A stretch of 64,000 nucleotides of DNA from Arsukibacterium sp. UBA5043 (GTDB lineage Bacteria > Pseudomonadota > Gammaproteobacteria > Enterobacterales > Alteromonadaceae). The notes under the pieces were generated by a model, which worked only from the letters and a program-made list of their open reading frames with translations, ran no database searches and was not told the origin of the DNA. The stretch covers positions 141,586 to 205,585 of the forward strand of contig NZ_DIBV01000004.1 of NCBI RefSeq assembly GCF_002415085.1, in the 5' to 3' direction. Shown piece by piece: positions 1,736 through 61,200 of the stretch (position 1 is its first letter; each line of letters begins with the position of its first letter). A program made the translations under genes and the position numbers.

Positions 1736-2719
1736 TTAGGTGCTGACCTGGCATTGCGACGCTGCTGCATTATCCGCTTGTTCAGCAACACCAATTTGTC
1801 GCTGGCTATCAAGCAGGTTGCTGTCTTGCGGTGCTAACAACAGCGCAGCTGCAATTAATGTTTTTGCTTGACGGTGGCAGCCAAGCTCGCTGAGCAGCAC
1901 CGCATAATTGTTCAGGAAGGGTATCTGTTGTCCGGCACTGGGCAGACCTTGTTCAAACCAGTGGGCGGCCATTAGTGGCTCGGTTGCATAGTAATGGTTA
2001 CCCAGTAAAAAGTACGGCAGCCAGTAGTCTGGCCACTGCCTGGTAGCCGTTATCAGGGCAGCGAGGCCAGCATTTGTTTGCCTGGTGTTGATAAGATCTT
2101 GACAGGCTTTGGTGTAAACAAAAGGGTCAAGCTGGGTGCTGGCCAGTTCAGGGGGCAACATGGCCAGCAGCCAGTAGTTAGCGCGCTGCCAGGTGCGCTC
2201 GAAGGTTGAGAAGTTCAGCCGGTGTGCTTCAGTTACCCCGGTATGTAAAATCATTTCTCTGCTATTGATGTCATAACCCACAACGACCGCGTAATGCCAC
2301 TGAGGTAACCAGCTAATGGAATTATTTTGCAGCACAATCACCGGAATATTATCGGCAACCAGACTGAGTAACTGGCTCATCGTGCCGCGCTGCTGATAGG
2401 CCAGCATGCCCAGCTGACGAGTTGCTGCGGCCATTTCAATTTGTAAGGTACCTTCCAGCGCAGGCGTAAAGGTGTTAGGCGCAATATGTTCCGGGCTGGT
2501 GTTCAAACCATGAAAGTTAGCAACTTCTGCTAAGGTTGTGGGTCCGCAAAAGAACGCCTGCTGTGGATAAAACGGCACCTGAGCAATCACATGCTGACCA
2601 GCAATGGCCGGCGGTGCTGCCAATAGTTGTTTAGTTTGTGGCGGAGTCTGGCATGCGGTTAAACCAAGTAGCAGACCAGCCAACAGGCTGGCCTGTAATG
2701 TAAAGCGGATAAAAAGCAC
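1736..2719 (-). CDS. PA2778-family C39-like cysteine peptidase lipoprotein with C-terminal TPR-like region
   Basis: Lipobox LLGLTAC-Q; papain/C39-like Cys context QAFFCGPTTLAEV and His context WHYAVVVGYD; helical repeat C-terminus. Confidence 0.65.
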   Translation of the reverse strand: MLFIRFTLQASLLAGLLLGLTACQTPPQTKQLLAAPPAIAGQHVIAQVPFYPQQAFFCGPTTLAEVANFHGLNTSPEHIAPNTFTPALEGTLQIEMAAATRQLGMLAYQQRGTMSQLLSLVADNIPVIVLQNNSISWLPQWHYAVVVGYDINSREMILHTGVTEAHRLNFSTFERTWQRANYWLLAMLPPELASTQLDPFVYTKACQDLINTRQTNAGLAALITATRQWPDYWLPYFLLGNHYYATEPLMAAHWFEQGLPSAGQQIPFLNNYAVLLSELGCHRQAKTLIAAALLLAPQDSNLLDSQRQIGVAEQADNAAASQCQVST

Positions 2720-2722
2720 TTA

Positions 2723-3103
2723 TCAGATAGGGCGGATAAACGGGTACACATCGGTAATGCCCATCAGATCAAGCACTGCCACTACCACCAACACGGTAAC
2801 GATAGTACCAACGATACCACCTGCGGGCATATCGTTTAGCTGGGAGTTAAACGCTTCCAGCTCAGCGTTGGTCATGCTGGCAATGCGCTGTTTAGCATCT
2901 GCCGGGCTGACACCCAGCGTCTGCAATTTTTGCTGAACTTCTGCCGTATCGACAAAGGCGAGTACTTGCTGTTTATTGTATTGGTATTGTTGTGTAGCAA
3001 TCACTTGATCAGAAGTGTAAACACCTGCGACAGCAGGGCTGGCAATTACCATGAGCCCGGCAAACATTAACATGGCACTGGCTGTTAGATATTTATTCAT
3101 CAT
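2723..3103 (-). CDS. PA2779-family small secreted/membrane protein
   Basis: 126 aa; Sec signal peptide, Q-rich middle, Gly-Gly at residues 95-96 followed by a 30-residue hydrophobic tail; 3 nt upstream of the peptidase gene. Confidence 0.6.
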   Translation of the reverse strand: MMNKYLTASAMLMFAGLMVIASPAVAGVYTSDQVIATQQYQYNKQQVLAFVDTAEVQQKLQTLGVSPADAKQRIASMTNAELEAFNSQLNDMPAGGIVGTIVTVLVVVAVLDLMGITDVYPFIRPI

Positions 3104-7016: not shown

Positions 7017-8243
7017 ATGCCGCGTTATTCTGCTGATTTTATTAAAGCTATGCCAAAATCTGATTTGCACCTGCACTTAGATGGCAGTCTGCGGCTGGAC
7101 AGTCTGATTGACATGGCGAAGCGCACGGACACTAAGTTGCCGTCGCAAAGTATTGACGGCTTGAAACAGTTGGTATTTAAAGACAAATATCAGAATCTGG
7201 CTGAGTACCTGCACTGTTTCCAATATACCTGTGCTGTGCTGCGCGACCCCGAAAATTTAGAACAAGCTGCGTACGAACTAGCCATTGATAACCAGAACGA
7301 GGGCGTTAATTACATCGAAGTAAGGTTTGCACCGCAACTGCTGATTGATTTAAGTCGGGGTATCGATTTTGATCAGGTGATGCATGCGGTTAATAATGGC
7401 TTGAAGCGGGCGCAGGATGAATATAACCGCACTGAAGCTGTGCTTAGCGGTAATAAACCCCCGTTTGGTTATGGCATTATCAATTGCGCGATGCGGATGT
7501 TTGGCGATAAAGGCTTTTCGCCGTATTACACCAACTTATTTCAGCTAATGCGCGACTTTGAGCCAATGGACGTGATTAAACTGGCGGCGATGGAATTGGT
7601 GCGGGCCAGTGTGCGGTTGCGAGATCAACACGCGATGCCGATAGTGGGCCTGGATTTAGCAGGCCAGGAGTCGGGCTATCCAGCCAGCAAATTCAAGGAA
7701 GTGTACGAGTATGCCCACCAGCATTTTATGCTGAAAACCCTGCATGCTGGTGAGGCCTATGGTGCCGAAAGCGTTTTCGAAGCCATTACTGAATGCTATG
7801 CCGATCGGATTGGCCATGGTTATTCTATGTTTATTCCAGACATGATTCATAGCCCGGATATTGCCGACAAAGCCGCGTACATTCGTAATCTGGCCAGCTA
7901 TATCGCCGACAAACGTATCGCCATAGAAGTATGCCTGACCAGTAACCTGCAAACCAACCCGCAACTCACTGATATTCGGCAGCATCAATTTAAAGCCATG
8001 CTGGATAATCGAATGGCGACAGTAATATGCACCGACAATCGGCTGGTATCGAACACCACGGTATGCAATGAATACCAGCTGGCGCTGGATAACTTTGATA
8101 TTCCGTTAAAACGTTTAAAAGACATGGTGGCTTACGGCTTTAAAAAGAGCTTTTTTCCAGGAAGCTATGTAGAAAAGCGCCAGTATGCCAAGAACTGCCT
8201 GGACTATTTTGATCGAGTTGCCAAACAGTATGGATTTATTTAA
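7017..8243 (+). CDS. adenosine/AMP deaminase-family protein
   Basis: KSDLHLHLDGS metal motif, TLHAGE, CTDN; start moved to the ATG at 7017 preceded by AAGGAG (ORF track starts at a GTG at 6945). Confidence 0.75.
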   Translation: MPRYSADFIKAMPKSDLHLHLDGSLRLDSLIDMAKRTDTKLPSQSIDGLKQLVFKDKYQNLAEYLHCFQYTCAVLRDPENLEQAAYELAIDNQNEGVNYIEVRFAPQLLIDLSRGIDFDQVMHAVNNGLKRAQDEYNRTEAVLSGNKPPFGYGIINCAMRMFGDKGFSPYYTNLFQLMRDFEPMDVIKLAAMELVRASVRLRDQHAMPIVGLDLAGQESGYPASKFKEVYEYAHQHFMLKTLHAGEAYGAESVFEAITECYADRIGHGYSMFIPDMIHSPDIADKAAYIRNLASYIADKRIAIEVCLTSNLQTNPQLTDIRQHQFKAMLDNRMATVICTDNRLVSNTTVCNEYQLALDNFDIPLKRLKDMVAYGFKKSFFPGSYVEKRQYAKNCLDYFDRVAKQYGFI

Positions 8244-8266
8244 ATAAAACATAACGTTATAAATAC

Positions 8267-8284
8267 TGTCGCAAAAGGCATACA
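8267..8284. promoter_or_regulatory. degenerate GlrR-type half-conserved site (TGTC-N10-TACA)
   Basis: TGTC 8267-8270, 10-nt spacer, TACA 8281-8284; 65 bp upstream of the perfect site. Confidence 0.25.
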
Positions 8285-8320
8285 GCTTAACTGATTGATT
8301 AATAACAGTTAAATATTAAG

Positions 8321-8360
8321 CTGGTTAATAGTGTCTCTAATAGCAGACACTATTAACCAG
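8321..8360. promoter_or_regulatory. candidate GlrR/QseF enhancer-binding site inside a perfect 16-bp inverted repeat
   Basis: CTGGTTAATAGTGTCT-N8-AGACACTATTAACCAG; core TGTC(8332-8335)-N10-GACA(8346-8349) equals the published GlrR consensus TGTCN10GACA; about 90 bp upstream of the -24/-12 element. Confidence 0.5.
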
Positions 8361-8422
8361 AAATAGAAAATTCCAAACGTAAAAAATACATAACCATCTG
8401 AAATAAAACAAATATTAAAACT

Positions 8423-8438
8423 TGGCACGACACTTGAT
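8423..8438 (+). promoter_or_regulatory. candidate sigma-54 (-24/-12) promoter
   Basis: TGGCACG-N4-TTGAT versus consensus TGGCACG-N4-TTGCW (GG correct, -12 is GA instead of GC); preceded by a long AT-rich tract; a sigma-54 activator gene lies 2.3 kb downstream. Confidence 0.5.
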
Positions 8439-8467
8439 ATACCTTAGGTAATTACCGGAGGTGTGTT

Positions 8468-8644
8468 ATGGATTTATTCTTAGTTTTTATCACGATGTTC
8501 CTCGTTGCCAATATGATGTTAGTGGTAACAATGCTACGTCGTGTGGATTTAAATAACCCCAGTGTTCAGGCTTGGGAGCAACAGCAGGCTGCTGTTATCC
8601 ATACGGCTAGCCGCACTGAAGCGGTAAACTATACAGCGGTTTAA
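8468..8644 (+). CDS. small membrane peptide (58 aa), not in the supplied ORF track
   Basis: GGAGG at 8457-8461, 6-nt spacer, ATG 8468. MDLFLVFITMFLVANMMLVVTMLRR is one TM helix followed by RR and a polar tail; stop at 8642-8644. Confidence 0.5.
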   Translation: MDLFLVFITMFLVANMMLVVTMLRRVDLNNPSVQAWEQQQAAVIHTASRTEAVNYTAV

Positions 8645-8707
8645 ACCCGCAAGCCGAAATACACCAAACATATTCCCATGAGTTCAGCGTTTTGCTGGAT
8701 GTTTGTT

Positions 8708-8740
8708 CAGGCCAGCCCTCCTTACTGGCCTGTTTTTTTT
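8708..8740 (+). terminator. rho-independent terminator
   Basis: CAGGCCAG-9 nt loop-CTGGCCTG followed by T8. Confidence 0.8.
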
Positions 8741-8788
8741 AGTTAAACAGGTTATGCTAGCGCTAACTTTCTCAGAGTTTAACTGCCT

Positions 8789-10201
8789 ATGCGTTTCCCT
8801 TTGCAAACCGCCTCATTGCGTCAACTGGTTATCCTGAGTTTTTTGCTGGCTATGATCCCGGTTGGGGTGCTGATGTGGCAAAGCCATAAAGCCTTGTCAG
8901 GATTAAGCAGGTTTGCGACCAATGAGGCTGAACGGGCAGTGATTAGTGTGCGTCGGGCCGAAAATATGCAAAATCTGGTGGTGGATATTGAACGGGCTGT
9001 TCGCCAGTACGCAGTGGTGAAAACCGACGCACTGGCCCGGGTAGCCCAAAGCCATATCAGTAACCAGCAGGCCAGCCTTAGCGAGCTGTGTAACGATTTA
9101 CCAGAACTAAGTGATTGCCTGCAACAACAGGCAGATTTACAGCAACTGGCCGCGCAGTTCTCTGAGCTTAGTGGCGCCCCTCTGGAGCAGCAGTTGCAGC
9201 AAATCAGGTTGCGGCAGCAGCGGATTAGTCAGCAAATATGGGACTTACTGGAGCAGCGGCTGGTTAATCAGCAGCAGCTGGTGCAGGACGCGCAGCAGCG
9301 CCAGGCCTGGCAAACAGTAGCACTGGTGCTGTTAACCTTGTTATTGGTGTTGTGGGCGTCGGGTCGGGTGGCCGCGCCCGTTAAAAAACTGGATAAAATG
9401 ATCCGGGCGATTGGTCAGCAGCAACATTTCCCTGACGGAAAGCTTGATGGGCCTCGTGAATTGTCAGAGCTGGGTGAGCAGTTGCGCTGGCTCAGCTCAC
9501 GCTTACAGCAACTGGAAGCGCTCCGGCTTATTCTATTACGCCATGCATCTCATGAATTGAAAACACCGTTATCCAGTATTCGGGAAGGTTGCGCTTTGCT
9601 TACTGAACAACTGTTAGGTCCGCTTAACCCCCAGCAGCTTGAAGTTGTTATGCTGCTCAATGGCAGTGCCGACCGCTTAAGCCAGTTGACAGAGCAACTA
9701 CTGGATTATAACCGGCTGCTGCAGCAAGCTAAACCCGAATTAAGTCGTCAGGTGCCACAACAACTGTTGCAAGCCTGTTTTGCCGACCACGCCTTATCGC
9801 TGCAGCAGCGCCAACAACAAATAAAGTTGGATTGTCAGCTGAGCAGTATCTATACCGATGACACGTTGTTCCGGCGTATTTTGGATAATCTGATCAATAA
9901 CGCCCAGGCTTATGGTGCAGAAAGTAGCCCGGTATGGGTTAAACTGTATAAAAAAGACGATATGCTGGTGCTGGATGTGGCCAATAATGGTGCACCTATC
10001 CCCACCGCATTGCGTGAAAAATTATTTGAACCCTTTCAGCGTGGAACGACCCCAAGGTTCGATGCGATTCAGGGGTCGGGTCTTGGTTTGTCAATTGTGG
10101 CTGACTGTGCCCGGCTGCTGGGTGGCCATGCTGATATTGTAGATGTGGTTTATGCGGATGTATGTATCAGAGTGCGCCTGCCACTGTTAGAGGAAAAATA
10201 A
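8789..10201 (+). CDS. glrK: sensor histidine kinase, GlrK/QseE type
   Basis: N-terminal SLRQLVILSFLL...WQ and ERAVRQY segments and HAMP-to-H-box region (RHASHELKTPLSSIREG...LLDYNR) resemble E. coli GlrK as I remember it; G2 box GSGLGLSIV; kinase-lipoprotein-sigma54 regulator gene order. Confidence 0.75.
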   Translation: MRFPLQTASLRQLVILSFLLAMIPVGVLMWQSHKALSGLSRFATNEAERAVISVRRAENMQNLVVDIERAVRQYAVVKTDALARVAQSHISNQQASLSELCNDLPELSDCLQQQADLQQLAAQFSELSGAPLEQQLQQIRLRQQRISQQIWDLLEQRLVNQQQLVQDAQQRQAWQTVALVLLTLLLVLWASGRVAAPVKKLDKMIRAIGQQQHFPDGKLDGPRELSELGEQLRWLSSRLQQLEALRLILLRHASHELKTPLSSIREGCALLTEQLLGPLNPQQLEVVMLLNGSADRLSQLTEQLLDYNRLLQQAKPELSRQVPQQLLQACFADHALSLQQRQQQIKLDCQLSSIYTDDTLFRRILDNLINNAQAYGAESSPVWVKLYKKDDMLVLDVANNGAPIPTALREKLFEPFQRGTTPRFDAIQGSGLGLSIVADCARLLGGHADIVDVVYADVCIRVRLPLLEEK

Positions 10202-10202
10202 C

Positions 10203-10799
10203 ATGAGAATCATGCTGATAATACTGCTGGCTACGCTGTCAGGCTGCCAGCTGTTAAACCAGCATCCGCCTGTAGCAGAACCTGAAGCAGAGCCGGAATT
10301 AGCAGAACAAGTTGTCTTACCACAAATCAGCGAATCAAACAGTGAGGTTGTGCTAAGCCTGAACGATGATGCAGCTACATTGCAAGCCTGGGTTGAGTAT
10401 CGGGCCAGTATATTGGATAACCTGGCCGCATGGCGCGAGGCGTTAGCGGATCAGGCCGAACCTAACCAGGTACAAATACTGCAGAGAATTATGGTGCAAC
10501 TGCATCCAGATACCCCTTACTTAACAAGGCTTCGGGTGCAGATGCAGTTAGCGGAGCAAATTGCCACGTTGCCACCAGGACTGGCCGCACTTTTTAGCTG
10601 GGATCTAACCTTGAATCAGAAATTACTGGAAACGGAATCCGCGGTTAGCGCCCTTACCCGACTTAATGCCCAGCAGCATGAAAATATTGAGCGACTGCAA
10701 AAAAAGAACAAAGATTTGCAGAAAAAAATTGATGCACTCACCCAGATAGAAGCGCAACTGAATCAAAGTATCAACGGGGGTAACAGTGGCCGACCCTAA
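10203..10799 (+). CDS. lipoprotein in the QseG/YfhG position of the GlrK-GlrR system
   Basis: Lipobox LLATLSGC-Q; ATG 2 nt after the kinase stop; C-terminal coiled-coil-like region; assignment by position only. Confidence 0.55.
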   Translation: MRIMLIILLATLSGCQLLNQHPPVAEPEAEPELAEQVVLPQISESNSEVVLSLNDDAATLQAWVEYRASILDNLAAWREALADQAEPNQVQILQRIMVQLHPDTPYLTRLRVQMQLAEQIATLPPGLAALFSWDLTLNQKLLETESAVSALTRLNAQQHENIERLQKKNKDLQKKIDALTQIEAQLNQSINGGNSGRP

Positions 10800-12135: not shown

Positions 12136-12182
12136 GGCTACAGCCTGTTTTACACTTAGCTTTTTTGACAGAGGATACGGTA

Positions 12183-12533
12183 ATGAGTGCAATAACGCCC
12201 CCAGATGCCCAGCTGGCAGAAGATGCCGAAAATCCAGAGTTGCGTAAAGCAAAGATTATCAGTGAAACAGCCAGAATTAACTGGCCGCAACTGCAGAAAT
12301 TTTACGCAGCAGGCTCGGTAGTTACGATCAGCGCTGAGCACGACTTAGTAAACGTGGCGTTTGCCTTCAGTGCCGACGACAAAGAGCAGGTCGCCGACTG
12401 GCTGGCACAGGGCACAGTAGAACGTACCACCGAGCAACAGGCACAGCAATGGTTTGATAATAATACTGAGCTGTGGGCTGTGGTAATTTCGCCCTGGATC
12501 CTGGTACAAGATAAACCAGTGCAAGTTAACTAA
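12183..12533 (+). CDS. DUF2288-family protein
   Basis: 116 aa from the ATG at 12183 (GAGGA 7 nt upstream); sequence pattern recalled as DUF2288; function unknown. Confidence 0.5.
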   Translation: MSAITPPDAQLAEDAENPELRKAKIISETARINWPQLQKFYAAGSVVTISAEHDLVNVAFAFSADDKEQVADWLAQGTVERTTEQQAQQWFDNNTELWAVVISPWILVQDKPVQVN

Positions 12534-53809: not shown

Positions 53810-55897
53810 ATGTCAGATTCTATGCAGCAGCAATCTACAGACTTAAGCAGCAACCCGTTACTCACCTTTACTGATTTACCGCCATTCTCACAGATTAAAC
53901 CTGAGCAGGTAAAACCTGCGGTGGAAGCGGCTATTGCTCAGTCGCGTCAGGCGGTGGAGCAACTGCTTACTTCGGGTGACATCAGCTGGCAAACGCTGAT
54001 TACCCAATTAGAGCATGACAGCGAACGGCTGGGTAAACTGTGGTCACCGGTGTCGCATTTAAATTCAGTACGCAATAGCCCGGAGCTACGCGATGCCTAT
54101 GAAAGCTGTTTGCCGCTGTTGTCTGAATTCAGCACCTGGCTGGGCCAGCATGAGGGTTTATATCAAGCGTATCAAACCTTAAGTTTAAGTGATGAATTTG
54201 CCGACTTAACTCAGGCTCAGCAAAAAGTGATTACCAATGCGTTGCGCGACTTTAAGCTGTCAGGCATTGGTCTGTCAGATGACAAGAAACAACGATATGG
54301 CGACATTCAGAGCCGCTTGTCGGATTTAAGCTCGCAGTTTGCCAATAATACGCTGGATGCTACGCAGGCCTGGTTTAAACATATTACCGACGAAACTCTG
54401 TTGAGCGGCCTGCCAGAAGACGCCCGGCTTGCTGCGGCAGAAGAAGCGCAAAGCCGCGAGTTAACCGGTTGGGTGTTTACCCTGGAGTTCCCCAGTTATA
54501 TCGCGGTAATGACCTACGCTGATAACCGGGAGCTGCGCGAGCAGCTTTACAGCGCGTACTGTACCAGAGCATCAGATCAGGGACCGCATGCCGGTCAGTT
54601 TGATAACAGTGCCGTAATTGAAGAAATTCTGGCATTAAAACATGAGTTGGCGCAGCTGCTTGATTTTGCCAATGCGGCGCAAGAATCGTTGGTCACCAAA
54701 ATGGCAGACAGTCCGGCGCAGGTACTGGATTTTCTGACCGATTTAGCCCGTCGTGCCAAACCGCAGGCTGAGCAGGATCTGGCGGAACTCAGCACTTTTG
54801 CCCAAAAGCAGTTTAACGCACCAGAGCTGAAAGCCTGGGATATAACTTATTACAGCGAAAAACTGAAACAAGCAAAGTACGCCGTCTCTGATGAGCAATT
54901 GCGACCTTATTTCCCAGAAACAAAGGTGGTGCCAGGGCTATTTAAAGTGCTCAATCGACTGTTTGGTTTAACCGTGACCCAGCGCACTGACGTTGATGTC
55001 TGGCATCCTGATGTCCGGTTTTATGATATTACCGATAGCCAGGGCGAACTGCGGGGGAGTTTCTATCTGGATTTATATGCCCGCAGCCAAAAGCGTGGTG
55101 GTGCCTGGATGGATGATTGTCAGGGCCGGCGAATCTTGCCAGATGGCAGCGTTCAAAGTCCGGTGGCTTATTTGACCTGCAATTTTAATAAGCCGGTAGG
55201 TGGCAAACCCGCGCTGTTTACCCACGATGAAGTGGTTACGTTGTTTCATGAGTTTGGCCATGGCTTACATCATATGTTAACCAAGGTTGATGCGGCAGCC
55301 GTAGCCGGCATTAATGGCGTTGCCTGGGATGCAGTGGAATTACCCAGTCAATTTTTGGAGAACTGGTGCTGGGCACCAGAGGCCCTGGCGATTATCGCGG
55401 GTCATTATCAAACCGGTGAAGCATTACCCCATGATATGCTGCAAAAAATGCTGGCCGCGAAGAACTTTCAGTCAGCCCTGTTTATAGTGCGGCAACTGGA
55501 GTTCGCCCTATTTGACATGCGTTTGCACAGTGAATACACCGGCACAGCCAACACTACTGATGGCAACGGAGTCCAGCAGTTACTGGACGAGGTCCGAAGC
55601 CAGGTATCAGTAATTGTACCCCCCCGTTTTAACCGCTTTCAGCATGGCTTTGGCCATATATTTGCTGGCGGTTATGGCGCAGGTTATTACAGCTATTTAT
55701 GGGCTGAAGTATTGTCATCTGACGCGTTCAGCCGGTTTGAAGCCGAAGGTGTATTTAATCCGGAAACCGGCAGAGACTTTCTGAACTGGATTTTAGAGCG
55801 GGGTGGCAGCGCCGAACCTATGGAGCTTTTCAAAGGTTTTCGCGGCCGGGAACCGTCTAACGAAGCTTTTCTCAGGCATATGGGTATAGCAGGCTAA
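53810..55897 (+). CDS. prlC: oligopeptidase A (M3 family)
   Basis: HEFGHGLHH zinc motif; 695 aa; gor/prlC/rsmJ neighbourhood as in E. coli. Confidence 0.9.
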   Translation: MSDSMQQQSTDLSSNPLLTFTDLPPFSQIKPEQVKPAVEAAIAQSRQAVEQLLTSGDISWQTLITQLEHDSERLGKLWSPVSHLNSVRNSPELRDAYESCLPLLSEFSTWLGQHEGLYQAYQTLSLSDEFADLTQAQQKVITNALRDFKLSGIGLSDDKKQRYGDIQSRLSDLSSQFANNTLDATQAWFKHITDETLLSGLPEDARLAAAEEAQSRELTGWVFTLEFPSYIAVMTYADNRELREQLYSAYCTRASDQGPHAGQFDNSAVIEEILALKHELAQLLDFANAAQESLVTKMADSPAQVLDFLTDLARRAKPQAEQDLAELSTFAQKQFNAPELKAWDITYYSEKLKQAKYAVSDEQLRPYFPETKVVPGLFKVLNRLFGLTVTQRTDVDVWHPDVRFYDITDSQGELRGSFYLDLYARSQKRGGAWMDDCQGRRILPDGSVQSPVAYLTCNFNKPVGGKPALFTHDEVVTLFHEFGHGLHHMLTKVDAAAVAGINGVAWDAVELPSQFLENWCWAPEALAIIAGHYQTGEALPHDMLQKMLAAKNFQSALFIVRQLEFALFDMRLHSEYTGTANTTDGNGVQQLLDEVRSQVSVIVPPRFNRFQHGFGHIFAGGYGAGYYSYLWAEVLSSDAFSRFEAEGVFNPETGRDFLNWILERGGSAEPMELFKGFRGREPSNEAFLRHMGIAG

Positions 55898-58211: not shown

Positions 58212-61200
58212 ATGTTTAGTGCCATGCTCAGGTTTGAACTTAGCTACTATTTACGTCAGCCATCCTTTTATGTGGTGGCACTTATTTTGTTTTTAATCAG
58301 TTTTTTATCCGTAGTATCTGACTCTGTCAGTATTGGCAGTGGCGGTGAGGTGCTGAAAAACGGCAGTTTTGCTATCGCGCAAACTCTGCTGACCCTGGGT
58401 ATTTTTGCCATGTTTCTGGTGGTCAATTTTGTTGGTGCGAGCGCGCTTCGCAACAACAGCCATCAGATGGAAGAATTAATATACAGCAAACCACTGGCGC
58501 CATTTGCTTATCAGTTTGGCCGCTTTACAGGCAGTTACCTGGTGGTGCTGCTGGTTTTTTCGGCGGTACCATTGGGTATGTTGCTGGGCAGCTTTATGCC
58601 CTGGGTTGATGCCAGTCGTTTTGGTCCAACCGAATTGAGCTACTATTTAAACGCGTTTTTTCTGCTCTCGGCACCCAGCCTGTTTATCTTATCTGCGCTA
58701 TTTTATGCTATTGCCCGCCGCTTTCGTTCTATGCTGGCGTTGTATCTGGTTGCGGTAGTGCTACTGGTGTTTTATATTCTGGCCGGTAATTTTGCCCGTT
58801 TACCTGAGTACCGCCAGATTGCTGCGTTGCTCGATCCCTTTGCGCTGCGCACTTATGCTGATATCGCGCGCTACTGGACCATTATTGAAAAGAACAGCGA
58901 ATTAGTCAGTGTTAGCGGCGTATTGTTGCAAAATCGGTTGTTATGGCTGACGGCGGCGGCCGTATTGCTGGCGATGGCGGGTTTATTTAAACTGCCACAG
59001 CTTACCCGCGTTGCGGACAAAAAGCCGGGTACTAAAACCCGCGCTACGCCTGTGATACTCATGTCTACCTTGCAATTAAAAGCCAGTAGTTATAGCGCTT
59101 TACCGATGTTTTTTACCCGGATGAAATTTGAATTTAAGCAGGTAATTGTCACTGCACCGTTTTTGATTCTTGGTTTATTAACCGTCGCGAATCTGGTGGG
59201 GCCGATGTTTGCTGATTTTGGCTGGTATGGCACCTCAAACTGGCCACTTACCCAGACCATGGTCAGTGACATTACCGGCGCTATGGGGTTAATTATCTTT
59301 GTAGTGGCGGTATATTACTGTGCCGAGGTTGTCTGGCGGGAACGCAGCTCAGGTATGGGCGATATCATCGACAGTTTGCCAGTGCCTAATCTGGTGTTCT
59401 GGCTGGCCAAATTTGTTGCCGTTTGCCTGGTTATGTTGCTGTTGTACGCGTTTGCAATGGCAACAACAGTGGTATTTCAGCTGATTAAGGGCATTGAAAA
59501 CCTGGAATTACTGCAGTATCTGGTGCGGCTGGGTTATTTTACCCTGCTGCCTTTTATTCTGACTGTCGTACTGGCGTTTTTTCTGCAGGTAATCAGTCCG
59601 AATAAGTATGTAGGGATGGGGTTGTTTGTTGGTTATTTTCTGCTGACTACAGTGCTGTCGTCCTGGGGTTATGGTCACAGTATTTATAATTTCGCCACGT
59701 CACCTGCTGTTGGTTATTCTGATCTAAACGGTTACGGCTGGAGCCTGCAAAGCCATAGCTGGTATATGTTGTATTGGGGAGCGATCGCCGCCGTACTGTT
59801 TATTGTCGGTTATGGCTTGTACCACCGTGGGCCTTTGCAAAAGCTAACGGTCCGGATACGGCAGCTGCCCTATCAACTGGGCCGCAGTGGTATGGTAGCG
59901 GCTGGCGCTTGTGTGTTGCTGTCGGTTGGCAGTGGCAGTTTTTTAATCCAGCAGACCCGCTATCTGAATAGCTACCAAACGGCTGAACAACGCATGGACT
60001 TGCAGGCTGAGTACGAGAAGCAATTTGCTTCGTTAAAAGATCAACCCATTCTGGTGACCACCCGGGTAAAAGCCGAACTGGATATTTACCCTCAGGCGCG
60101 GGAAATTCAGGCCCGGTTGCTGCTGAACTGGCAGAACAAATCCGCAGAGCCAATTAGCCGCTTACTGGTTAACTGGCCAGCGCACACCGAGCAGCTAACC
60201 ATCACCATCGATAATGCCACGTTAAGTGAGCGCGATGCGCGTTTTCGTCAATCCTGGTTAACCTTTGCCGAGCCGGTGCAGCCGGGGCAGCAGGTTAACG
60301 GTGAAATCCGATTGTTACGCCAGAATCGTGGAATTAAAGAAAATAATTTTGATTACAGCGTGTTGGAAAACGGTACCTTTATTAATAACTGGGACTTACT
60401 GCCTCGTTTTGGTTATCAGGAAAACTATGAGCTGCAAGATCGCCATGAACGGCAAAAACGCGGCCTGCAACCACGACCTCGCGCCAATAAACTGGAAGAC
60501 AAGCGCTTTTATCAACAGAATTTTTTTGGTCAGGACGGCAACTTTATTCAGTTTGAAGCCGTAGTCTCAACCAGTGCCGATCAAACCGCTCTGGTCCCCG
60601 GCTACCTGCAACGGCAGTGGCAACAATACGGTCGAAACTATTTCCACTATAAAATGGACCAGCCAATGGTTAATTTTTATTCCATCTCATCTGGCCGGTA
60701 CGAGGTTGCCCGCGAGCAACACAAAGGCATAAATATTGAAGTGTATTATCATGCCGGCCACCCATGGAATGTGGCGAGAATGCTGGAGTCAGTGCGCGAC
60801 TCAATTGATTATTTCAGCGACGCATTTGGCCCCTATCAGCACCGGCAATTACGGATTATCGAATTTCCGGGTTATCGCAGTTTCGCCCAGAGCTTTGCCA
60901 ATACCGTGCCTTACTCTGAACAAATCGGCTTTATTACCGACTTGCGTGACCCGGACAATATCGACCCGGTGTACTATGTTACCGCGCACGAAGTGGCGCA
61001 TCAATGGTGGGGCCATCAGGTGGGGGCGGCCGATGTGCAAGGCAGCGCGGTTATTTCAGAGAGTTTGTCGCAATACGCTGCATTAATGGTCATGCAACAA
61101 AAATATGGCCGGGGCAATATCCGCAAGTTTATGCGGTTTGAGCTGGATCGATACCTGGCCGGGCGTTCGGCGGAACGGATTGGCGAACAGCCGTTGTTAC

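Follow-up and report, generated by a model that had tools for sequence, protein, structure and literature searches.

The promoter of glmY, which encodes a small RNA (sRNA), is reportedly controlled by the two-component system GlrK/GlrR (QseE/QseF) in E. coli, Salmonella and Yersinia (Reichenbach 2009; Gopel 2011, PMC3045617). The annotation of E. coli MG1655 places the genes on one strand in the order glmY-glrK-qseG-glrR, with glmY directly 5' of glrK. Work on the system has been confined almost entirely to Enterobacteriaceae, in which the literature describes it as conserved. Its direct targets known from that family are glmY and rpoE, whereas what it senses physiologically is still unclear (PMC6075780). 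Here we describe a locus from Arsukibacterium, a genus that NCBI places outside that family (Chromatiaceae, Rheinheimera group), in which the glmY position is occupied by a gene for a predicted single-pass small membrane protein. The locus lies at 8244-8788 of a 64,000-nucleotide stretch of DNA that we analysed as a whole and refer to as the window. We propose, with a probability of roughly 0.75, that 8244-8788 is a self-contained transcription unit that forms the local output of the adjacent GlrK-lipoprotein-GlrR system, and that its protein product perhaps serves as a feedback modulator; stated without a specific role for the protein, the proposal can be held with slightly greater confidence.

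Two other described systems bear on such a gene. MgrB, SafA, PmrR and MzrA are small membrane proteins that are induced by two-component systems and act back on a sensor kinase (Lippa and Goulian 2009, PMC2789325). The cpxP transcript, which belongs to an envelope-stress regulon, yields both a small regulatory protein and CpxQ, an sRNA derived from its 3' untranslated region (3'UTR) (reviewed in PMC9438474).

The closest likeness is to the glmY control region, which holds three GlrR sites of the form TGTCN10GACA, two integration host factor (IHF) sites that flank the proximal GlrR site, and a sigma-54 promoter; the activator site ABS1 is dispensable (PMC3045617). We read these elements in the E. 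coli sequence as TGTCTGTAAATCACGACA (ABS1), TGTCGCTTTCTGGCGACA (ABS2), TAACTCATTGATT (IHF), TGTCTCTTTTTAGCGACA (ABS3) and TTGGCACAGTTACTGCAT (promoter), and in a multiple alignment the blocks of the window are collinear with ABS2-IHF-ABS3-IHF-promoter, such that both regions share the order of site, IHF, site, IHF and a TTGGCAC-N5 promoter. The distal site of the window, centred near -174 from the predicted start, aligns with ABS2, while the putative proximal site is a perfect 16-bp inverted repeat centred near -110, whose core at 8332-8349 reads TGTCTCTAATAGCAGACA (TGTC-N10-GACA). With the perfect proximal copy and the TACA-ended distal one, the region carries two sites of the TGTCN10GACA type, 65 bp apart as compared with 63 bp for ABS2-ABS3. 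The alignment places the E. coli IHF site at a position equivalent to 8288-8300. A second IHF-like site, within an AT-rich spacer of 19.4% GC (49.8% for the whole window), is degenerate in the window and perfect in several sister genomes (for example TAATCAATTGATA in locus L001 and TAACTTATTGATA in L008), and at the sequence level predicted sites of the form WATCARNNNNTTR are found on both flanks of the proximal activator site. The promoter letters are TGGCACGACACTTGAT at 8423-8438 (TTGGCACGACACTTGAT as compared with glmY); the -24 half, with its GG at 8424-8425, and the spacing agree perfectly with TGGCAC-N5-TTGCW, but the -12 dinucleotide is GA rather than GC. If the start is placed as in glmY, near 8450, the leader would be 18 nt long.

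Unlike glmY, the window has two activator sites rather than three, with no equivalent of ABS1 present in its control region, and a sigma-70 promoter overlapping the sigma-54 element, as at E. coli glmY, was looked for there and not found. A preliminary description of this stretch had pointed out the degenerate distal site, the inverted repeat and its core, some 60 nt of AT-rich DNA, the sequence TGGCACG-N4-TTGAT, the GGAGG and a terminator, and all are present where it had placed them (Table 1). It had also suggested that the local target of the system is conserved in both position and control logic. The E. coli gene order bears this out for position; for control logic, the collinearity with the glmY promoter supports it, with the qualification that the -12 element reads TTGAT rather than the consensus TTGC, and it is from the sequence that we infer GlrR and sigma-54 dependence of transcription.

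The individual motifs are not beyond chance in 64 kb. An exact TGTC-N10-GACA occurs once in the window against 0.53 expected, and TGGCAC-N5-TTG occurs three times against 1.17 expected; a search of the whole window for further GlrR-type sites (TGTCGC-N6-GCRACA, up to 2 mismatches) gave 16 against 12 expected, none of them beside a sigma-54 element. The weight of the evidence lies instead in the ordered combination of the motifs and in their conservation, and of the sigma-54-like matches in the window the element at 8422-8438 alone is intergenic. The sequence TGGCAC-N5-TTG is also found at 54921-54934 on the minus strand and at 58276-58289 on the plus strand, inside long open reading frames (ORFs; 53810-55897 and one from ~58213), and these are probably chance matches or intragenic sigma-54 sites.

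To assess conservation we drew on protein databases and on the loci returned by one kinase-based genome scan, which identified the source of the window as an Arsukibacterium and whose closest locus is 98% identical. The comparison took in 42 full-length kinase-ortholog loci of Arsukibacterium, Alishewanella and Rheinheimera, together with L080, a Rheinheimera locus of the Pararheinheimera type, and two Alkalimonas-type loci (L082 and L084). Distal site, proximal site, promoter, Shine-Dalgarno sequence, ORF and, in most loci, terminator follow one another in the same order and at the same spacing in 46 loci that span Arsukibacterium, Alishewanella, Rheinheimera, Pararheinheimera-type Rheinheimera and Alkalimonas. 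Across these 46 loci the activator sites are always 64-66 bp apart, the distal site is kept as TGTCGCAAAAAGCATACA or near variants in nearly all, and the promoter element is conserved as TTGGCAC-N5-YTG[C/T/A]AT. Comparison also establishes a strict linkage to the kinase: wherever the small gene is present, in five genera, it adjoins the kinase gene. The more distant homologues, those of Alkalimonas and Pararheinheimera-type Rheinheimera, likewise lie directly 5' of the kinase-lipoprotein-regulator genes. The next gene upstream is not the same throughout (it is adenosine deaminase in the window and leuA in Alkalimonas), which shows that the unit moves together with the signalling genes. The position of the proximal site (-98, -110, -120 and -130 across genera) seems periodic, as if set by helical phasing; the E. 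coli value of ~-125 does not fit, and we draw no conclusion from it.

These comparisons also bear on whether the promoter, if real, might answer to another sigma-54 enhancer-binding protein than the adjacent GlrR-like regulator. Bacteria of this kind usually hold several sigma-54 activators, which leaves room for one. We nevertheless regard it as very unlikely: the sites fit the GlrR consensus TGTCN10GACA (PMC3045617) and share a TGTCGC...GCGACA flavour with the E. coli sites, the adjacent regulator is 63% identical to E. coli GlrR and nearly identical to it in the helix-turn-helix (HTH) region that includes the DNA-binding helix, and the sites accompany the regulator gene in five genera while the neighbour on the 5' side changes. 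The regulator has the receiver, sigma-54 AAA+ and HTH domains of a GlrR orthologue and is encoded together with a GlrK-like kinase and a lipoprotein.

The transcript differs from glmY in that it is a protein-coding mRNA. Its ORF opens at ATG 8468 and closes with TAA at 8642-8644. The preliminary description had noted that the ORF falls below the 60-aa cutoff of its ORF list; it is not unannotated everywhere, as the exact 58-aa sequence is already in RefSeq, where WP_290620069.1, a 'hypothetical protein', is found on 41 contigs. Using tblastn, we found the peptide in all 42 full-length kinase-ortholog loci; the frame is uninterrupted, and the start codon and Shine-Dalgarno sequence are intact, in 45/45 loci that carry the gene, with orthologues of 54-69 codons. 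GGAG stands at the same distance from the ATG in 43 aligned sequences and in Alkalimonas, and L080 has GGGGTG. Substitutions follow a codon pattern: over codons 1-40 the ratio of nonsynonymous to synonymous substitution (dN/dS) is 0.06-0.07 for comparisons inside a genus and 0.11-0.17 for those between genera, and 27, 14 and 38 of the 40 columns are variable at codon positions 1, 2 and 3, respectively. Twelve residues are invariant (F11, L12, N15, R24, R25, L28, S32, V33, A35, W36, E37 and Q39). We conclude from this comparison that the ORF is a real protein-coding gene under strong purifying selection, as had been supposed when a small protein was first suggested here; the tblastn survey and the choice between codon-type and stem-compensatory substitution, both proposed at that time as checks, came out in favour of a protein.

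The same data make it scarcely credible that the RNA is a non-coding, GlmY-like sRNA in which the ORF is fortuitous. The locus does have the position of glmY, the predicted transcript of ~290 nt with a terminator falls within the sRNA range, and its predicted whole-transcript fold is somewhat more stable than that of shuffled sequences (z = -2.67). However, neither the substitution pattern nor the intact frame, start codon and Shine-Dalgarno sequence in every gene-carrying locus suits a fortuitous ORF. Furthermore, the Rfam models GlmY_tke1 and GlmZ_SraJ found nothing in 8100-8900 with hits allowed to E = 10, nothing in nine related loci with hits allowed to E = 1 and nothing in the whole window at the gathering score, and no other relevant Rfam family turned up in these three sets either. 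The transcript is thus not GlmY or GlmZ, with which the locus shares only its genomic position and upstream control region.

The encoded protein has a predicted transmembrane (TM) helix over residues 2-25 that contains the invariant Asn15, followed by RR and a break at DLNNP, and a predicted second helix over residues 31-50 that holds SV.AWE..Q. AlphaFold2, run with the family alignment, returned the same helices and break with a mean predicted local distance difference test score of 76, and mean hydropathy is 2.5 over residues 3-21. As RR follows the hydrophobic helix, the positive-inside rule predicts an N-out, C-in topology, with the helical tail in the cytoplasm. Searches of Pfam, NCBIfam and PDB profiles with the peptide and its family returned only noise (DUF2149, E = 0.075 to 0.11; a homeobox chain, E = 2.2). 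A word-indexed search with the peptide found 27 relatives, and a HMMER profile search of 1.84 billion representatives found 8 clusters, all of the same family and clade, and none beyond.

In size (~50-70 residues) and in having one predicted TM helix, the protein resembles the MgrB class, and promoter anatomy and conservation suggest that its gene, too, is controlled by a two-component regulator, which would make feedback plausible. No sequence similarity to MgrB, SafA or another known member appeared in the Pfam, NCBIfam and PDB searches. The functional C-terminal part of MgrB is periplasmic, whereas the conserved tail of the present protein is predicted to be cytoplasmic; its gene also differs from that of MgrB in being linked to the kinase operon and in its predicted sigma-54 dependence. 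That the small protein modulates GlrK within the membrane, as MgrB does PhoQ, is a tentative suggestion by analogy. It draws on three features: a linkage to the kinase gene that does not vary, a polar residue in the TM helix, Asn15, that does not vary either, and the conservation of the juxtamembrane tail.

The small gene is followed by a strong intrinsic terminator. A GGCCAG-loop-CTGGCC stem with a run of T6-T10 is found after the ORF in all compared loci other than Alkalimonas and L080, the latter having a different hairpin with a T7 run in its place; the terminator is kept in three genera, with one compensatory pair. Beyond it, ~30 nt 5' of the kinase ATG, lies the -10-like TATGCT, from which the kinase operon is probably transcribed by a promoter of its own, by analogy with E. 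coli qseEGF. In Alkalimonas the ORF and the kinase gene are not separated by a terminator, the gaps being 108 nt (L082 4184-4291) and 57 nt (L084 2018-2074), and the sigma-54 promoter there probably drives the whole operon.

The promoter might therefore be thought to act mainly in positive autoregulation of the kinase-lipoprotein-regulator operon, with the small ORF as its first cistron or as an upstream ORF. The short, terminator-free gaps in Alkalimonas, which make co-transcription likely in that genus, would suit such an arrangement, and a study of Proteus reports that glmY-qseE-qseG-qseF form an operon (PMC8745638). For the window we consider it unlikely. The window and 42 other loci have a GC-rich stem of 8 bp with T8-T10 between the ORF and the kinase gene, followed by the conserved -10-like TATGCT, and the E. 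coli qseEGF genes have their own sigma-70 promoter just 3' of glmY and are not autoregulated (PMC6075780). Moreover, the strong purifying selection on the peptide sequence argues that the product matters, beyond the act of translation.

Between the ORF and the end of the transcript lies a conserved RNA module that the preliminary description had not noticed, although it had named a dual-function RNA as an alternative to a small membrane protein; the module lends that alternative support. It consists of a single-stranded block, TCCCATGAG at 8674-8682 ((A/T)TCCCATGAG across loci), a hairpin that reads TTCAGC/GCTGGA at 8683-8699 in the window and TTCAGC/GCTGAA with a variable loop across loci, a U-rich linker and the terminator. 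When Arsukibacterium is compared with Rheinheimera, the block reaches an identity of 0.82 and the hairpin arms 0.84-0.88, as against 0.45 for the loop and 0.34 for the flank, over a distance at which synonymous sites of the ORF are saturated (pS 0.84). The C-terminal third of the coding region is less well conserved than the block. A covariance model found exactly one copy of the module per locus, always at this 3'UTR position, and found none in Alkalimonas, in the metagenomic locus L081 or in the E. coli glmY region; the module is also absent from two Alishewanella loci and nearly absent from L080. A first alignment of the 3'UTRs had misregistered the Alishewanella rows, such that RNAalifold returned the terminator only, and an explicit structure with a covariance-model alignment was used instead. 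In this model-fitted alignment (A3), 94% of cells are paired with 5 compensatory pairs, values that 0/500 shuffles reach; the unfitted alignment gives 91% and 3 compensatory pairs.

It is therefore possible, though we hold it only tentatively, that the transcript is dual-function and that its 3' end (~8666-8740) is also released as, or acts as, an Hfq-type sRNA, as CpxQ does from the cpxP mRNA. GlrR output would then keep an RNA arm as in the enterobacteria, in addition to the small protein and not in its place. The layout is that of an Hfq-type sRNA, namely a conserved single-stranded block (UCCCAUGAG) as a potential seed, a hairpin, a U-rich linker and a GC-rich terminator with U8, conserved beyond the neutral rate, and mRNA 3' ends are a recognised source of sRNAs (PMC9438474). 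Against this, covariation is modest, the stems being mostly invariant and alignment A3 fitted to the model, and the module has the gaps in distribution described above, with the block only half conserved in Alishewanella. The complement of the block, CTCATGGGA, has no meaningful match in the window that could serve as a target, and the module could be a mere mRNA-stabilising or termination-efficiency element. A second copy of the block was searched for in the window and none was found. We also considered a long-range pairing of the Shine-Dalgarno region with 8658-8680, and rejected it, as the 3' partner is coding in other Arsukibacterium genomes and not conserved.

The comparison with cpxP/CpxQ is thus one of plan, a putatively two-component-driven transcript with a small protein and a conserved 3'UTR of block, hairpin, terminator and U tail. 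There is no sequence relation between the two, and CpxP is periplasmic and sigma-70 dependent.

Taken with the genome comparison, these features suggest the following course of events for the proposed transcription unit. A signal would act through GlrK and the lipoprotein to bring about phosphorylation of GlrR, and phosphorylated GlrR would bind the two TGTC-N10-(G/T)ACA sites near -174 and -110. With IHF bending or looping the AT-rich DNA, GlrR could then activate sigma-54 RNA polymerase poised at TTGGCAC-N5-TTGAT to form the open complex. Transcription from ~8450 to the terminator at 8708-8740 would give a monocistronic mRNA of ~290 nt, and the strong Shine-Dalgarno sequence would direct its translation into a 58-residue inner-membrane protein with one TM helix and a cytoplasmic helical tail.

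Several observations weigh against this proposal. The -12 dinucleotide is GA in the window; Rheinheimera has GT there, and the GC form occurs only in Alishewanella and some others. Owing to this departure from GC, promoter strength and activator dependence are uncertain. The best NCBIfam model for the regulator is the GlrR equivalog (691 bits, next best family 404 bits), yet this score is below the NCBIfam GlrR cut-off of 763. BLAST similarity between the lipoprotein and E. coli QseG was not detected, and the lipoprotein is an analogue of QseG by position only. In locus L081, whose kinase cluster is named Rheinheimera texasensis, the kinase, lipoprotein, regulator and DUF2288 genes are present, but the region 5' of the kinase (2300-3010) lacks a small ORF, a sigma-54 promoter and a TGTC-N10-GACA pair; a 158-aa gene that stops 127 bp short of the kinase takes the place instead. 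As this locus has the three-gene system without it, the small protein is not obligatory for the system. Finally, most orthologues extend six residues beyond the window copy to a C-terminal motif Y-x-x-x-A-(Q/A) (for example ...Y-A-P-K-A-Q or ...Y-M-A-K-A-A). Within 8636-8662 of the window, a TAT-to-TAA change has turned the codon of the conserved Tyr into a stop, as it has in L009, and the former coding sequence runs on in frame as 3'UTR. The TAA in L009 and database proteins of 54-58 aa, which also have the short form, indicate that an Arsukibacterium sub-lineage carries it. The lack of Y-x-x-x-A-Q/A in the window copy implies either that part of the protein is dispensable or that the lineage is losing the function.

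The promoter module is of a known kind and its regulatory logic is ordinary; what is new is the output, a gene with no described protein family. Open-access full text yielded no account of a local GlrR/QseF target that codes for a protein, in line with the earlier remark that no such target of GlrKR/QseEF systems was known, and nothing relevant on GlrR/GlrK in Shewanella, Vibrio, Aeromonas or Alteromonas in the open-access literature. The locus indicates that the whole glmY-type enhancer/promoter module predates GlmY or exists independently of it: in the Rheinheimera/Arsukibacterium/Alishewanella/Alkalimonas clade this module fronts the gene for an orphan small membrane protein. That protein is subject to strong purifying selection and is a candidate for a fourth component of the signalling system. 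It thereby offers a concrete case for a swap of an sRNA gene and a small-protein gene behind a conserved promoter, and a tractable second model for what GlrK/GlrR senses and controls, in which the conserved 3'UTR module makes the RNA side testable too. More speculatively still than either the kinase-modulator or the 3'-end sRNA suggestion taken singly, GlrK/GlrR outside the enterobacteria may have an undescribed, direct two-part output from one sigma-54 transcript, a small inner-membrane protein acting with or on the kinase and a regulatory RNA derived from the 3'UTR, with glmY sitting in the slot of an older protein-plus-RNA gene and the promoter module kept throughout.

Table 1. Features of the small-gene locus and the adjoining signalling genes, in window coordinates.
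Feature	Position	Strand	Basis
Distal GlrR-type activator site TGTCGCAAAAGGCATACA (TGTC-N10-TACA), ABS2 equivalent	8267..8284	.	Sequence, conservation, alignment
IHF-like site TAACTGATTGATT between the two activator sites	8288..8300	-	Full match to YAANNNNTTGATW, the reverse of WATCAANNNNTTR
Perfect 16-bp inverted repeat, putative proximal GlrR-type site, ABS3 equivalent	8321..8360	.	Sequence; 16 pairs
AT-rich spacer with degenerate second IHF-like site TAACCATCTGAAA (8391-8403)	8361..8422	.	Composition, alignment
Predicted sigma-54-type promoter TTGGCAC-GACAC-TTGAT	8422..8438	+	Motif, conservation
Predicted transcription start	8449..8451	+	25 nt past the second G of -24, the E. coli glmY spacing
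Shine-Dalgarno sequence GGAGG, 6 nt 5' of the ATG	8457..8461	+	Sequence, conservation
58-codon gene, predicted single-pass small membrane protein	8468..8644	+	ORF, conservation, structure model
Conserved 3'UTR RNA module: block, hairpin, U-rich linker, terminator	8666..8740	+	Conservation, covariance model
Intrinsic terminator CAGGCCAG-loop-CTGGCCTG + T8	8708..8740	+	8-bp stem, 9-nt loop
-10-like TATGCT, putative sigma-70 promoter of the kinase operon	8753..8758	+	Kept in different genera as TATGCT or TAAACT
GlrK/QseE-like sensor histidine kinase, 470 aa	8789..10201	+	BLAST against E. coli GlrK, family profiles
Lipoprotein, 198 aa, lipobox LSGC, QseG position	10203..10799	+	Position; overlaps the regulator start codon
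GlrR/QseF-like sigma-54-dependent response regulator, 449 aa	10786..12135	+	Pfam receiver, Sigma54_activat, HTH_8; NCBIfam GlrR

The kinase gene that follows the small gene had been called glrK-like, a name that fits: its product is 36% identical to E. coli GlrK across the full length (469 residues, E = 3e-84), and kinase homologues carry the name GlrK at JGI. The C-terminal half of the lipoprotein is coiled-coil-like.

The leaders of the relatives vary in length and structure. A distance of 103-134 nt separates the sigma-54 promoter from the ATG in Rheinheimera, in Alishewanella and at the Pararheinheimera-type locus, and the leaders of these three groups contain a very stable predicted hairpin of 17-22 bp, different in sequence in each genus (GGAGAATGTCGCAAG/CTTTGCCACATTCTCC, GGGGAATAGCGTAAAAG/CTTTTACGCGATTCTCC and GGTAAATTAGGTAAGAG/CTCTTACCTAATTTACC). 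The leaders covered by the comparison are the ~100-135 nt before the start codon in L011-L037, L039 and L041-L043, together with L080 2472-2589 and L082 3946-4000. The long hairpin has no Rfam match; its 3' arm includes CUCC, which could pair with the Shine-Dalgarno sequence. It is absent from Arsukibacterium, including the window, and the sequence comparison suggests that this genus has lost it; the Alkalimonas leader is 55-61 nt. A second, small leader hairpin just before the Shine-Dalgarno sequence covaries (GCAGC/GCTGC versus GCTCC/GGAGC).

Downstream of the regulator gene, a DUF2288 gene (12165-12533 in the window) occupies the 3' side, as it does in L080-L084, that is, in every locus inspected; in E. 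coli, glnB occupies this position.

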